A DNA stretch of 64,000 nucleotides from Candidatus Woesebacteria bacterium (GTDB lineage: Bacteria; Patescibacteriota; Microgenomatia; UBA1400; UBA1396): the NCBI GenBank assembly GCA_021208605.1, contig JAJOJK010000002.1, positions 37,606 through 101,605 of the forward strand. The letters run 5' to 3'. The notes under the pieces were generated by a model, which saw only the letters and a list, made by a program, of their open reading frames with translations, made no database searches and had not been told where the DNA came from. Position 1 is the first letter of the stretch. Every line of letters starts with the position of its first letter. A program made the position numbers and the translations under genes. This document shows, in pieces, positions 44,118-63,789 of the stretch.

Positions 44118-45068
44118 ATGCACATACTCGTCACTGGCGCCGCTGGCTTTATTGGATCGCATGTGGCGACAGCCTTACTGGAGCGCGGAGACACCGTAGT
44201 TGGCATCGATACTCTCAATGATTACTACAATCCAGCCTGGAAGCAAGCCAATCTGGATCGATTATCAGCATCTGACAACTTCTCTTTCCAAAAAATTGAC
44301 TTTTCTGAACGCGCTGAACTCGAGCCACTCTTTGCTCAAAACTCGTTTGACTGCGTTGTCCACCTTGGCGCTCGTGCCGGCGTGCGCCCATCAATTGTTG
44401 ATCCACTGCTTTACGAAAAAACCAACGTCCAAGGCACGCTGAATATTTTAGAAGCCATGCGCGAACACGGCGTCCAACAGATTGTAGCGGCCTCTTCCAG
44501 CTCGGTGTATGGCAACCAAACCAAGGTTCCCTTTTCAGAATCTGACCCCGCTAACGCCCCGATCAGCCCCTATGCCGCCAGCAAAAAAGCCTTGGAAATG
44601 TACTGCCACACCTACGCGCATTTGTATGGCATCCAAGCCACCTGCTTACGCTTCTTCACCGTCTACGGACCAAACGGCCGCCCCGACATGGCGCCGTATC
44701 TCTTCACGGAAGCTATCTTTACCGGCAAGCCGATCAAAAAATTCGGCACTGGCGAAACCAAGCGTGACTATACTTTCATTGACGACATCGTCGCCGGGGT
44801 TCTCGGCGCCATCGACACGCCCAAGCCATTTGCCATCTATAACTTAGGCAATCACACGCCGGTGAGCCTCAACGAGTTTATTGCCACGCTTGAAGACATT
44901 ATTGGCAAAAAGGCCATCATCGACCAATACCCCATGCAGCCGGGCGATGTAGAGATTACGTATGCCGATGTCACACGCGCGCAAGAAGATTTTGGGTATG
45001 AGCCCAAGACGCCGTTTGCCGAAGGGTTGCGGAGGTTTGTGGAGTGGTATCGGGAAAATCGGTTGTAA
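44118..45068 (+). CDS. NAD-dependent nucleotide-sugar epimerase (UDP-glucuronate 4-epimerase-like SDR)
   Basis: Rossmann motif TGAAGFIGS and catalytic YAASK. Confidence 0.75.
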   Translation: MHILVTGAAGFIGSHVATALLERGDTVVGIDTLNDYYNPAWKQANLDRLSASDNFSFQKIDFSERAELEPLFAQNSFDCVVHLGARAGVRPSIVDPLLYEKTNVQGTLNILEAMREHGVQQIVAASSSSVYGNQTKVPFSESDPANAPISPYAASKKALEMYCHTYAHLYGIQATCLRFFTVYGPNGRPDMAPYLFTEAIFTGKPIKKFGTGETKRDYTFIDDIVAGVLGAIDTPKPFAIYNLGNHTPVSLNEFIATLEDIIGKKAIIDQYPMQPGDVEITYADVTRAQEDFGYEPKTPFAEGLRRFVEWYRENRL

Positions 45069-45471
45069 CTATCGATTTCTCTGTGAAAACCAATGAGCAA
45101 TATCCTTTGTAACAGTCGGACCAGCTATCGTCACGGTAAAAAAGAAAAGCAATATGTACGGAGCGTAGTATCCGATATATTCGAGAACTTGAATTAACCA
45201 GTTACCGATAACCATAATTATCTCCATATGTACTGAGATAGTACCACAAAAAGGCACACGCCAGAATATTTATTCCATTTGCAATAACCGGTACCACCTG
45301 TATTCCAAGAACTGAACTCCACGTGATACCAAACGTAATTTGGAGAAGCGCGATTGATAAATCTCGGTAATCACGCTCACCAAGCCAATGCCAGAACCCT
45401 GCCATTCTCCTAAGAAGATTCGCACTCATAGGTTGTACTCTACCACCCAATCTGCACAAAAAAACGCACAA
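45069..45471 (-). CDS. Small polytopic membrane protein, apparently frameshifted (ORFs 45202..45471 and 45069..45257 overlap by 56 nt)
   Basis: Both pieces are hydrophobic. The position, divergent from a GtrB-like GT, suggests a GtrA-like or DUF-type accessory subunit, but the sequence match is weak. Confidence 0.3.
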
Positions 45472-61510: not shown

Positions 61511-63789
61511 TGCGTCGTTTCACCCGGTGGGTTCCACAGTGGCTGCAAGAATCGTGGTATGTGTTTCTCTTGTTTTTAGGACTCGCTGCACTCTTTGTCT
61601 GGCTGCCGATTCGACCAGTTGACACAACCATGTTCCCGGGCGATATTTCCACCTTTTACGCGCCACAAAAATCGGTCGCCGAGGAAGTCCGCACCCGCAA
61701 CTCGATCTTGGCCGACGCGATCATGGTCTATGCCCCGCGGCATACCTTCATGTGGAAACATCTTCAAGCGGCTTCCTATGGCACCTACGATCCCTATGTC
61801 CTTGGAGGACGACCCGCTGGCTTGAATTGGTACTACATATCTTTGCAACTCCCTGGCTGGATACTGGGTGGCGTGATCGATGCTTTCTTGATAAACACAC
61901 TGTGGCAAACAGCTCTGGGTGCTGTCTTTTTCTATTGGCTCATTCGCGATTGGCCAGTAGGCAGAGAGAGTGAAAAACCACCGTCTCGATTCGCCGCGCT
62001 GGCTGGCGCCATCATTTGGCTCTTTGGCCAACACCAAATTGTCTGGTACATGTTCCCGGCCCACTTGCATACGCAGGTGTTGTTTCCGTTTGTCCTGTGG
62101 GCATTTCGCCGGCTCTGGTACACCAGCAGTCAGTGGCTTATCTTTGGCTTCTTGCCGCTGTTGTATTTTGTCTGGTCGTCTGGCTACACGCAGGGCGTGA
62201 TTTATCTCTTACTGATGCTGGGACTCTATTTCTGGTACTTGGTCTGGCAAGAAAAAACCTATTCGAGAATTCCCGCGCTCATAAAAAAACTCGTCAGTTT
62301 TGCCATTCCCGTCGGTATCTTCGTGGCCATTTTGGCGCCAGGACTCCTCAACTGGACTACGAAACTCGAAAGCGGTATCCGCGGCGAGCAAAGTGGCGAT
62401 CACACACCCACCTGCGAACTGTGCACTCTTGATGGCGCCGCGAAATCCATAGCGGGTTTTGTCCAGCCAGATATATTAGGAAATACCTACCAATTTTCGT
62501 ACTTTGGTGAGAAAAATATTGTTGAGTATGGTCGCTATATGAGTTTGCTGCCGTGGTTATTACTTGTGGGCGCCTGGCTGACCAAGACGTGGCGGAAAGA
62601 TGCAACGTTTTTTGTGGGAGTAGCGTTTTTAGCGTGGTCGATTATGCATGGAGTGCCGCTGATCACCCAACTGATTTATGGCGTTCCCTTTCTGAACCTA
62701 GGCCAAGCGACCCGCCTCATCACGCTCGTGCTCCTCAGTGGCGCTATTTGGTCGAGCCTGCTGTTTGACCCGGTAACGACGAAACTTGCATCGTTGCGAC
62801 TCAAAACGCTGCGTACACGCGGGCTAGTACCACTTTTTGTGGTGAGTGCGGTCGGGCTTCTCCTCATTACCTTTTCCTTTACGATTGAACCGCTCCAACA
62901 ACGCTGGCTGCTTCGCTCCGGTGCCGTCGCCGCACTGGTTGCCGTTGGCTATGGCGTTATTTTTGCCTTGGGCTGGGCTCAAAAAATTTCTTTGACTCTG
63001 TTGCGCATACTCTTAGTGATATACGTCTTTTTCGAACTCACCGTTCAACTCGGTAACTTTAATACCTTCTCGCAGCACAGCCAGATTTTTCCCGCCACTG
63101 AACTCACCACCTGGCTGCAAGAAAATATTGGTAACAACCGTGTCCACACCAGCGGCACCATTTACCTTCCAAACTCTTCTGTCATCTTCCAGATTCCGGT
63201 GATCAATGGCTACTCCACTTCCCTGCCTTCTGAGTACTTCCAGTGGATGCAGGACAATTTTGCCGTGGTAGAAACCACCTACAACGGTTTTTTGCGCATG
63301 TCGGCCGAGTCCAACGACGTCACCAACCAAATGGCGGTGAAATACGTCTTAAGCGAACAGCCAGTGGAAGATGAAAATCTGGTCTTGGCCACCGAAAAAT
63401 CCGGCGTCTTCGTCTACGAAAACACCACCGCTTGGCCGCGTGTGTGGACTGCCGAACCAGCCAGCTGCCCAGATCTCTCCCAGCCAAAAAACTGCGCACT
63501 TTCCTATACAGAAGCGAGCGTTTCTTCTGAAATTTCCGGTTACCACCACTACGAAAATGGCGCTATCTTCCAGATTTCTACCACTGAAGACAGCCTCCTC
63601 GTATTTGCGGAAAACTGGCATCCCAATTGGCAAGTAACCATCAATGAACGCGTAGAACAAACGAAGGCAATAACACCTGGCTTGATAGCCGTTCCACTCC
63701 CAGCTGGTGACGCACAGAAAATTGAGTTGAAATACTCACCCACCTATCGCTGGCCGGGTCTTCGTCAACTCTTTCCCAATCGCTTGTAG
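61501..63789 (+). CDS. YfhO-family GT-C-like polytopic membrane glycosyltransferase
   Basis: About 760 aa from MEVMRRFTRW, with many TM helices and a C-terminal beta domain ...ENWHPNWQVTINE...LKYSP typical of YfhO. The ORF-track start at 61399 overlaps the previous gene. Confidence 0.55.
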   Translation: MEVMRRFTRWVPQWLQESWYVFLLFLGLAALFVWLPIRPVDTTMFPGDISTFYAPQKSVAEEVRTRNSILADAIMVYAPRHTFMWKHLQAASYGTYDPYVLGGRPAGLNWYYISLQLPGWILGGVIDAFLINTLWQTALGAVFFYWLIRDWPVGRESEKPPSRFAALAGAIIWLFGQHQIVWYMFPAHLHTQVLFPFVLWAFRRLWYTSSQWLIFGFLPLLYFVWSSGYTQGVIYLLLMLGLYFWYLVWQEKTYSRIPALIKKLVSFAIPVGIFVAILAPGLLNWTTKLESGIRGEQSGDHTPTCELCTLDGAAKSIAGFVQPDILGNTYQFSYFGEKNIVEYGRYMSLLPWLLLVGAWLTKTWRKDATFFVGVAFLAWSIMHGVPLITQLIYGVPFLNLGQATRLITLVLLSGAIWSSLLFDPVTTKLASLRLKTLRTRGLVPLFVVSAVGLLLITFSFTIEPLQQRWLLRSGAVAALVAVGYGVIFALGWAQKISLTLLRILLVIYVFFELTVQLGNFNTFSQHSQIFPATELTTWLQENIGNNRVHTSGTIYLPNSSVIFQIPVINGYSTSLPSEYFQWMQDNFAVVETTYNGFLRMSAESNDVTNQMAVKYVLSEQPVEDENLVLATEKSGVFVYENTTAWPRVWTAEPASCPDLSQPKNCALSYTEASVSSEISGYHHYENGAIFQISTTEDSLLVFAENWHPNWQVTINERVEQTKAITPGLIAVPLPAGDAQKIELKYSPTYRWPGLRQLFPNRL

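Follow-up and report, generated by a model that had tools for sequence, protein, structure and literature searches.

The window analysed here is a 64,000-nucleotide (nt) stretch of a Candidatus Woesebacteria contig. A region running from position 34920 to beyond the end of the window at 64000 is likely to direct the biosynthesis of a cell-surface glycopolymer, by means of two multi-component transmembrane glycosylation systems (i.e. systems A and B, each with a GT-A-fold glycosyltransferase (GT), a flippase and a GT-C-fold GT), a tailoring operon and a Wzx/Wzy module. Coordinates are collected in Table 1 and genes are referred to in the text by their lower coordinate. A preliminary description of positions 44118-63789 had proposed an envelope-glycan locus with an elaborate, multiply decorated surface glycan pathway. 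Gene content and family calls uphold this proposal, the calls being a polyprenyl-phosphate GT of family 2 (GT2), an ArnT/PMT-like GT-C enzyme, a UPF0104 protein, a TIG-domain membrane protein, a YfhO protein and a sugar-tailoring block. Every named gene was present at its assigned coordinates in the open reading frame (ORF) listing, which together with Pfam and NCBIfam scans gave the gene map. The glycan region is larger than was described, the number of further GT2/GT4 enzymes within 44118-63789 is three (50466, 59117 and 60581) and not four, and the three distinct systems that had been counted become two GT-C-based systems plus a Wzx/Wzy module lying outside those positions.

Three kinds of evidence were obtained, namely the families to which the proteins belong, their predicted topology and the conserved linkage of their genes. 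Synteny in related genomes, suggested as a check on the locus, was confirmed using a metagenome-assembled relative (GCA_964447905.1), in which the genes between 36112 and 63789 are all present with unchanged order and orientation. Amino acid (aa) identities ranged from 54% (the GT2 at 38876) to 93% (the GT2 at 45490), with a C39-like peptidase as the sole clear outlier at 42%. The same gene order was found on a Logan contig. As order and orientation are identical in the relative and parts of the locus recur in far more distant loci, the clustering of these genes is not due to chance.

System A contains a GT2 enzyme (45490) whose sequence places it firmly among the ArnC/GtrB/DPMS-type polyprenyl-phosphate glycosyltransferases. 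Comparison with solved structures gave matches to ArnC (9HWJ, 4.4e-40, residues 6-291 of 303), GtrB (5EKE, 2.2e-25) and DPMS (5MLZ, 1.7e-15). The NCBIfam ArnC model (NF007986) matched at full length (1.1e-43) with 149 bits, which is far under the equivalog cut-off of 529, indicating that the enzyme is a family member and not an ArnC orthologue. The second-best NCBIfam match, again at full length (1.6e-32), was PgfS of the protein-glycosylation operon of Streptococcus mutans. DDG and DGD motifs, of the DXD type that characterizes GT-A enzymes of family GT2, are visible in the translation, and a Kyte-Doolittle scan detected two C-terminal hydrophobic segments forming a hairpin (aa 270-288 and 303-321 of the 337-aa ORF, or aa 236-254 and 269-287 in the numbering of the 303-aa protein). 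GT2 enzymes of the GtrB/ArnC/DPM1 type work on the cytoplasmic side of the membrane, where they load polyprenyl phosphate with a sugar taken from a nucleotide sugar. This is the opposite of the step that had been assigned to each of three transferases in the locus, i.e. movement of a sugar off a lipid carrier to an outside acceptor. The GT2 is most likely a cytoplasmic enzyme that provides the neighbouring GT-C enzyme with its lipid-linked donor, and not a third extracytoplasmic transferase.

The partner of this GT2 is an 848-aa polytopic protein (47005), placed in the GT-C superfamily near PMT_2/ArnT, in the neighbourhood of CAZy GT39/GT83, by three independent lines of evidence (i.e. profile-profile comparison, reciprocal hidden Markov models (HMMs) and fold comparison). 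The preliminary description had staked its GT-C and YfhO calls on profile-HMM assignment. Direct searches with curated HMMs failed for both proteins, yet the PMT_2/ArnT-like and YfhO assignments are still right, both having been regained by profile-profile comparison and reciprocal HMMs, with fold comparison in addition for the 848-aa protein. Among 5.8 billion protein clusters, the 848-aa protein had one identical, one 76%, one 32% and one weak match, and a profile search added four further relatives. The small clade of this protein aligned with a bridging group of homologues (the P0004 group) at a probability of 98.7% in hhalign (E 1.6e-16, 439 columns). Members of the bridging group match PF13231 (PMT_2) at 6e-12 to 3e-13, above the gathering cut-off, and an HMM of the group scored the window ORF at 5.8e-14. 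Profile searches of PDB sequences with alignments A1 and A2 produced nothing meaningful, the one for the 848-aa protein included. AlphaFold2 models of the 848-aa and YfhO proteins were built from shallow alignments of eight and four sequences, respectively. In the low-confidence model of the former, the membrane core has a GT-C fold and ArnT was the best Foldseek match, with AglB, AftA and ArnT scoring alike.

The 848-aa protein comprises an N-terminal extension (aa 1-290) with four predicted transmembrane (TM) helices around a hydrophilic loop of ~155 aa, a GT-C core (aa ~295-650) and a C-terminal soluble domain of ~190 aa. By the positive-inside rule, both hydrophilic extra parts would face outward. 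A D321-E322 pair is invariant in an alignment of eight divergent sequences and lies just past the predicted TM helix at 295-313, in what the positive-inside rule suggests is the first outer loop, in agreement with the acidic first-loop motif of GT-C enzymes.

Linkage of the GT2 and GT-C genes was examined in 29 metagenomic loci retrieved with the bridging GT-C group (alignment A6), analysed together with loci L006 and L011; in 23 loci the flank preceding the GT-C gene spans at least 2.1 kb. An orthologue of the window GT2 (190-260 bits) was found upstream of the GT-C gene in 20 of these 23 informative loci, and in two cases (L036 and L041) an orthologue of the window epimerase (327-333 bits) stands beside that GT2. 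Because the two genes also belong to one plus-strand gene string in the window, the GT2 and the GT-C enzyme are regarded as halves of one system. The locus of a GT-C enzyme with 26% identity (P0010) reads GT-C, GT2, GT-C, GT-C and LPG_synthase_TM. A metagenome scan with alignment A5 returned no relatives.

The epimerase at the start of this gene string (44118) has SSSSVYG and YAASK motifs and lacks the dehydratase acid/base pair. Its matches among PDB sequences include 6ZL6/6ZLA and MoeE5, which are UDP-glucuronate (UDP-GlcA) 4-epimerases. By sequence, the enzyme is a candidate UDP-glucuronate 4-epimerase that may supply the GT2. The matches suggest a polyprenyl-phosphate-galacturonate route like that of RgtE/RgtD/RgtF (PMC7663294). 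In the mechanism proposed for system A, the epimerase would supply a UDP-sugar, possibly UDP-galacturonate, and the GT2, acting on the cytoplasmic side, would attach the sugar to polyprenyl phosphate. This lipid-linked monosaccharide would then be flipped, with the UPF0104 protein (49522) as the candidate flippase, and the GT-C enzyme, probably together with the translationally coupled TIG protein (46409), would transfer the sugar to an extracytoplasmic acceptor by employing D321-E322.

A small membrane partner had also been ascribed to the GT2. The corresponding ORF (45069) does exist and has a counterpart of 47 aa in the relative (32% identity over 41 aa, E 3e-7 by tblastn) within otherwise unalignable intergenic DNA; nothing ties it to the GT2, however, and it is not GtrA-like. 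An 89-aa ORF (45202-45471, minus strand) was dropped as a candidate for this partner, since the 47-aa ORF alone has a protein-level counterpart in the relative.

System B is formed by a GT2 (60581), a YfhO protein (61501) and a convergent flippase gene (63800). The 762-aa protein can be placed in the YfhO family of GT-C enzymes on the strength of its homologues. A four-sequence profile retrieved 5613 proteins from an exhaustive library, many at full length, and PF09586 was matched by 49 of 54 aligned homologues (best 3.5e-37) and, faintly or weakly in precomputed matches, by the relatives P0005 and P0007. An HMM built from 48 distant homologues, with the window clade excluded, scored the window protein at 402 bits (E 6e-119, model positions 4-747 of 777). 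Across the 54 sequences D72 is invariant and D48 nearly so. The fragment at 63800 is 66% identical to the last 67 aa of a 428-aa Polysacc_synt protein of the relative (tblastn). A convergent Wzx gene likewise follows YfhO in the relative's genome (L003) and in a distant locus (L010), the latter having a YfhO with 48% identity and the same order of a GT2 gene, an overlapping YfhO gene and a convergent Wzx gene. This arrangement resembles the GacI/GacK variant in PMC8035078. A hydrophobicity scan predicted no TM helix in the GT2, which is possibly the donor-side GT of system B; the pairing of YfhO with a CsbB/GtrB-type membrane-anchored GT2 and a GtrA/GtcA flippase was not seen in the window. 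With the Wzx-type flippase, the soluble GT2 and the YfhO enzyme would add a second decoration in the same manner as system A. Beyond the right end of the window, the relative encodes a GT2 (265 aa) beside a DUF2304 protein (111 aa), DUF2304 being the family of GacJ, and a 484-aa protein with eight predicted TM helices and no Pfam match (L003, 18155-20789); the trio might represent an additional donor synthase of the GacI/GacJ kind together with another GT-C-like enzyme.

Several observations weigh against assigning two complete glycosylation systems and a glycopolymer pathway to this region. Neither the 848-aa protein, whole or in three parts, nor the YfhO-family protein (762/796 aa) had a Pfam or NCBIfam match at E<=10. 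The model of the 848-aa protein is poor (pLDDT 48.7), though usable for a fold search, and that of the YfhO protein (pLDDT 42.0, pTM 0.33) had yeast oligosaccharyltransferase as its best Foldseek match at a non-significant E of 0.15. No GtrA-type flippase and no initiating phosphoglycosyltransferase were found among the scanned window ORFs. UPF0104 is present in about one third of the related GT2 and GT-C loci with enough flank, and the family is not known to flip polyprenyl-phosphate-sugars. Because the GT2 (60581) lacks a CsbB-type membrane anchor, it is uncertain which enzyme makes the donor of system B. No UDP-glucose dehydrogenase is encoded in the window and, for this reason, the polyprenyl-phosphate-galacturonate route remains a lead only. 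A methyltransferase of the tailoring operon is frameshifted in the window sequence. The sugars and acceptors are entirely inferred, as are the direction of transfer and the identity of the flippases.

The assignment of a flippase to system A has two competing solutions. The UPF0104 protein (49522) is, by sequence, a candidate flippase for the lipid-linked sugar. It scored 124 bits against PF03706 (cut-off 33.4, aa 17-292) and 74 bits against TIGR00374 (cut-off 43.2), and is polytopic with at least five hydrophobic segments. Homologues occur near GT2 and GT-C genes in four independent distant loci (L006-8, L023/33, L025 and L032), once directly after the GT-C gene; phmmer with the window protein alone found one locus, and a small iterated HMM was needed for more. 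UPF0104 has been predicted as a lipid-linked-sugar flippase from an archaeal neighbourhood of UPF0104, PMT/STT3-like and AglD-like GT2 genes (Makarova et al. 2015, PMC5898192). We tentatively suggest that stand-alone UPF0104 proteins might be dedicated polyprenyl-phosphate-monosaccharide flippases in widespread GT2 and PMT_2-like GT-C systems, replacing GtrA/ArnEF, and that the TIG protein might serve an N-terminally extended GT-C enzyme as a new subunit for recognizing the acceptor, or be that acceptor itself. If true, system A would be a compact four-part system, i.e. the epimerase, the GT2, UPF0104 and the GT-C enzyme with TIG.

It is possible, if doubtful, that the UPF0104 protein does not serve system A and instead moves a glycolipid built on a glycerolipid, or some other lipid, that the GT2/GT4 enzymes nearby produce, a role put forward for P. 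aeruginosa gpgSDF and C. difficile hexSDF, while something else flips the polyprenyl-phosphate-sugar of system A. The gene is the last of the minus-strand operon, co-transcribed with the GT2 (50466) and the GT4 (59117) and not with the GT-C gene, on which it converges with a 30-nt overlap, and the GT4 weakly matches a GlcNAc-phosphatidylglycerol (GlcNAc-PG) synthase (1.7e-9, 37 bits). UPF0104 proteins are predicted flippases of GT4-made GlcN-PG (PMC12713373), the family has been proposed to consist of general phospholipid translocators (bioRxiv 10.1101/2022.03.11.483950), and a nearby UPF0104 gene is missing from most related GT2 and GT-C loci. However, in the four independent distant loci the UPF0104 gene accompanies GT2 and GT-C strings without any tailoring genes, the archaeal neighbourhood favours a role in system A (PMC5898192), and Pfam scans revealed no gpgD/hexD-type deacetylase in the locus.

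The nature of the acceptor turns partly on the TIG protein (46409), a candidate accessory or acceptor-binding subunit. Its TIG domain scored 26.7 bits (5e-6) against a Pfam cut-off of 20.9, and its stop codon overlaps the start of the GT-C gene by 4 nt. The outer part (aa 113-199) is ~88% identical to that of the relative while the TM part has drifted, a pattern that fits an extracytoplasmic binding role. Acceptor-binding partner proteins of such systems have been speculated about (PMC8035078). With its conserved Ser/Thr-rich linker on the outer face, the protein could also be a substrate. System A might instead be a protein O-glycosylation system of the Ppm1/Pmt or streptococcal Pgf type and not decorate a polysaccharide or teichoic acid. 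The GT2 would make the polyprenyl-phosphate-sugar, and the GT-C enzyme would glycosylate Ser/Thr-rich stretches of membrane or secreted proteins, among which the invariant linker of the TIG protein (HSLSSTSSIQGDY) is a possible target. The match of the bridging homologues to PF13231, the PMT_2 family, and the rank of PgfS among the GT2 matches agree with such a function, as does the presence of an epimerase in the Pgf operon of S. mutans. We nevertheless consider it rather unlikely, given that the locus sits among polysaccharide genes (Wzx, Wzy_C and many GTs) and that the TIG protein was seen in the window and the close relative alone, being absent beside the GT-C relative P0003. The similar fold matches to AglB, AftA and ArnT, from a low-confidence model, do not separate acceptor types.

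Failure of the curated HMMs on both large membrane proteins, and the scarcity of biochemically characterized YfhO family members, would also be compatible with one or both being non-catalytic GT-C-fold scaffolds or substrate-binding subunits (cf. PIG-U/GAB1 in glycosylphosphatidylinositol transamidase) or having a function other than glycosyl transfer. This is improbable in view of the invariant D321-E322 in eight divergent sequences, the invariant D72 and nearly invariant D48 of YfhO, and the tight coupling of both proteins to GT2 genes. Although all three families are present, three independent carrier-to-acceptor systems (GtrB-like, ArnT-like and YfhO), each decorating an outside acceptor, are very improbable, as the GT2 has the cytoplasmic GT-A domain and C-terminal hairpin of ArnC/GtrB/DPMS, which charge the carrier (PMC8035078), and is genetically coupled to the GT-C gene in 20 of 23 distant loci.

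Two GT-A/flippase/GT-C systems conform to the multi-component ('three-component') scheme, in which a membrane-linked GT-A enzyme makes a C55-phosphate-sugar in the cytoplasm, a flippase moves the sugar and a GT-C enzyme transfers it to a wall polymer outside (PMC8035078). Versions of the scheme that use a soluble GT-A or a Wzx-type flippase have been described, as have genomes with several GT-A/GT-C pairs; B. subtilis and L. lactis have three pairs each, and such pairs are ordinary in Firmicutes (PMC8035078). The Gram-positive systems (CsbB-GtcA-YfhO, GtlA-GtcA-GtlB, CsdAB/CD/EF-CflA and GacI/J-GacK-GacL; PMC8035078) share with the window the pairing of a GT-A GT2 with a polytopic PMT_2 or YfhO GT-C enzyme, the occurrence of several pairs, the soluble GT-A and Wzx-type flippase variants, and a location within cell-wall polysaccharide loci. 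In contrast, the window lacks a GtrA/GtcA-type flippase, with UPF0104 and Wzx proteins as candidates for that role, its GT-C enzymes are too divergent for Pfam, and its PMT_2-like enzyme is extended by 290 aa at the N terminus and works from a gene coupled to that of a TIG protein.

Other known systems are alike in part. ArnC-ArnT, which handles 4-amino-4-deoxy-L-arabinose (L-Ara4N) for lipid A or the lipopolysaccharide core, provides the closest solved structure to the window GT2 and the best Foldseek match to the GT-C model, whereas the GT2 falls short of the ArnC equivalog (149 versus 529 bits), no ArnA/B/D/E/F or lipid A genes were seen in the window, and the 848-aa GT-C enzyme has extra domains relative to solved ArnT chains of ~540 aa. 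RgtE-RgtA-D with the LpsL epimerase, a Gram-negative system for galacturonate (GalA), follows the same logic of epimerase, GT2 and GT-C enzyme, and a bactoprenyl-phosphate-GalA pathway of RgtE/RgtD/RgtF has been described (PMC7663294). The archaeal neighbourhood links the same three families (arCOG00899 UPF0104, arCOG00563 PMT/STT3-like and arCOG00897 AglD-like GT2; PMC5898192); it is dolichol-based and AglD fuses GT2 and UPF0104, whereas the window is bacterial, with separate genes and with UPF0104 closing a different operon on the other strand, and both are known as predictions. Ppm1/Pmt of Actinobacteria and PgfS-PgfM1-PgfE-PgfM2 of S. mutans likewise combine a GT2 polyprenyl-phosphate-sugar synthase with a PMT-type GT-C enzyme, Pgf including a 4-epimerase, whereas the window proteins score well under the family cut-offs and have polysaccharide-type neighbours.

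All components of the locus are of known kinds. What is new is the divergence beyond curated models, the extended N-terminus of the GT-C enzyme and its TIG partner, and the association with UPF0104 in a bacterium, making the locus a bacterial example of the GT2, PMT-like GT-C and UPF0104 neighbourhood predicted for archaea. Real GT-C glycosyltransferases in poorly sampled lineages are overlooked by curated HMM libraries and can be regained by profile-profile and fold comparison, as for the 848-aa protein with its three close relatives among 5.8 billion protein clusters. We know of no family for which the flippase step of such GT2/GT-C systems has been proven experimentally, and the compact conserved cassette is therefore a usable test case. 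The remaining biology is expected, since Wzx/Wzy assembly is frequently found together with multi-component extracytoplasmic glycosylation, and genomes normally hold several GT-A/GT-C pairs.

Table 1. Features of the glycan region, with positions in the window
Position	Strand	Product or family	Match or remark
34920-36131	-	Wzy_C-like membrane protein	Pfam Wzy_C 5.8e-10, above cut-off
36112-36903	-	GT2	Pfam Glycos_transf_2
36879-37676	-	GT2	Pfam Glycos_transf_2
37624-38883	-	Wzx flippase	Pfam Polysacc_synt_3 4e-51
38876-39901	-	GT2	Pfam Glycos_transf_2
44118-45068	+	Extended short-chain dehydrogenase/reductase (SDR), NAD-dependent sugar-nucleotide 4-epimerase	Pfam Epimerase 1e-60
45069-45212	-	47-aa single-TM ORF between epimerase and GT2	
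45490-46401	+	GT2, ArnC/GtrB/DPMS type, C-terminal TM hairpin	Pfam Glycos_transf_2 (PF00535) 1.1e-30
46409-47008	+	199-aa membrane protein, 3 predicted TM helices and C-terminal IPT/TIG domain	
47005-49551	+	848-aa polytopic GT-C-fold protein, divergent PMT_2/ArnT-like	
49522-50463	-	UPF0104/LPG_synthase_TM (MprF flippase-domain) protein	PF03706 8e-36; TIGR00374 1e-20
50466-51440	-	GT2	
51437-52561	-	DegT-type, QdtB-like sugar 3-aminotransferase	PDB: QdtB (3FRK) 2e-115, DesV 2.5e-105
52531-53811	-	Class-III aminotransferase	
53792-54724	-	SDR	
54721-55788	-	ATP-grasp ligase	
55715-56137	-	FdtA/QdtA-like cupin	
56153-57070	-	PGA_cap/CapA-like protein	
57072-57782	-	S-adenosylmethionine (SAM) methyltransferase	Frameshifted in window sequence
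57759-59123	-	CapK/PaaK-like adenylate-forming enzyme	PaaK (PDB) 4e-13
59117-60256	-	GT4	First in transcription order
60581-61510	+	Soluble GT2	Glycos_transf_2 5e-19; overlaps YfhO start by 10 nt
61501-63789	+	762-aa YfhO-family GT-C membrane protein, at least 9 TM helices, C-terminal beta-rich domain	
63800-64000	-	C-terminal end of Wzx-type (Polysacc_synt) flippase	Cut by window end; convergent with yfhO

The tailoring operon lies between systems A and B. Ten tightly packed minus-strand genes (50466-60256) and the UPF0104 gene, with overlapping or abutting stops and starts, form one 11-gene operon (49522-60256), and all of the tailoring genes have orthologues in the relative. The PDB matches of the DegT-type protein (51437) also include WbpE; QdtB, DesV and WbpE are sugar C-3 aminotransferases. 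A nucleotide sugar of the 3-amino-3,6-dideoxyhexose type is indicated, because the QdtB-like aminotransferase shares the operon with an FdtA/QdtA-like cupin. The same combination is found in the dTDP-Qui3NAc/Fuc3NAc pathways (QdtA/FdtA, QdtB/FdtB and QdtC/FdtC). Unlike those pathways, the operon lacks a left-handed beta-helix (LbH) N-acetyltransferase, its SDR shows no clear 4,6-dehydratase signature, and the ATP-grasp, CapK/PaaK-like, class-III aminotransferase, CapA-like and methyltransferase genes imply a different N-substituent. As these enzymes stand in the place of the LbH acetyltransferase, an unusual amide-linked substituent and methylation seem probable. The operon would make a 3-amino-deoxyhexose-type nucleotide sugar via the QdtA/FdtA-like isomerase and the QdtB-like 3-aminotransferase; the ATP-grasp and CapK-like ligases would probably amidate or N-acylate this sugar, methylation would follow, and the GT4 and GT2 would incorporate the product.

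Two candidate roles within this operon were rejected. The GT2 (50466) was not called a second polyprenyl-phosphate GT, its ArnC match covering the N-terminal ~110 aa alone and the protein having one hydrophobic segment. The SDR (53792) was not accepted as a 4,6-dehydratase, having TSTIDIYG without the usual TDE signature. Loss of one nt near 57505, in a run of five A residues as compared to six in the relative, divides the methyltransferase gene (57072-57847, minus strand) between two frames, whereas the protein of the relative is intact at 236 aa; the break might reflect a sequencing error in the homopolymer, a pseudogene or slippage.

Upstream, positions 34920-39901 encode both a Wzx flippase and a Wzy/O-antigen-ligase-like polymerase, the hallmarks of a Wzx/Wzy-dependent pathway. 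This block would assemble a carrier-linked polymer that is the likely acceptor of the decorations. Same-order orthologues exist in the relative for four of the five genes (36112-39901), the Wzy_C gene falling beyond the end of the fetched locus. A chain-length regulator was, like the initiating phosphoglycosyltransferase, absent from the scanned window ORFs, and both may lie elsewhere in the genome.

Between this module and 44118 are a C39-like peptidase, a Dus gene, a tRNA-Val gene and an orphan ORF of 250 aa. The first (39902-41731, plus strand) is a 609-aa protein with a weak Peptidase_C39_2 match; at 42% identity to its orthologue, as compared to 54-93% for its neighbours, it is fast-evolving. 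The dihydrouridine synthase gene (Dus; 41752-42878, plus strand) is split between two frames that align separately with aa 1-79 and 74-346 of the intact 349-aa Dus of the relative, and this second frameshift in the same window as the methyltransferase break raises questions of assembly quality. Within 43217-44096, the 250-aa ORF right after tRNA-Val (43217-43291) has no Pfam or NCBIfam match and no counterpart in the relative, where an unrelated 114-aa ORF on the opposite strand occupies the position, indicating a small variable site beside the tRNA.

The remainder of the window is occupied by housekeeping genes (ATP synthase, SecA, tRNA synthetases and enolase). A RecD-like helicase is present as two ORFs in different frames with a 4-nt overlap (17423-18070, AAA_30/AAA_19, and 18067-18654, UvrD_C_2; plus strand), and may represent a third frameshift or a genuinely split gene. 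Within 33465-34954, a 482-aa ORF with a weak protein-kinase match is listed with a GTG start at 33506, which falls within tRNA-Lys (33465-33540), indicating that its real start lies further downstream.

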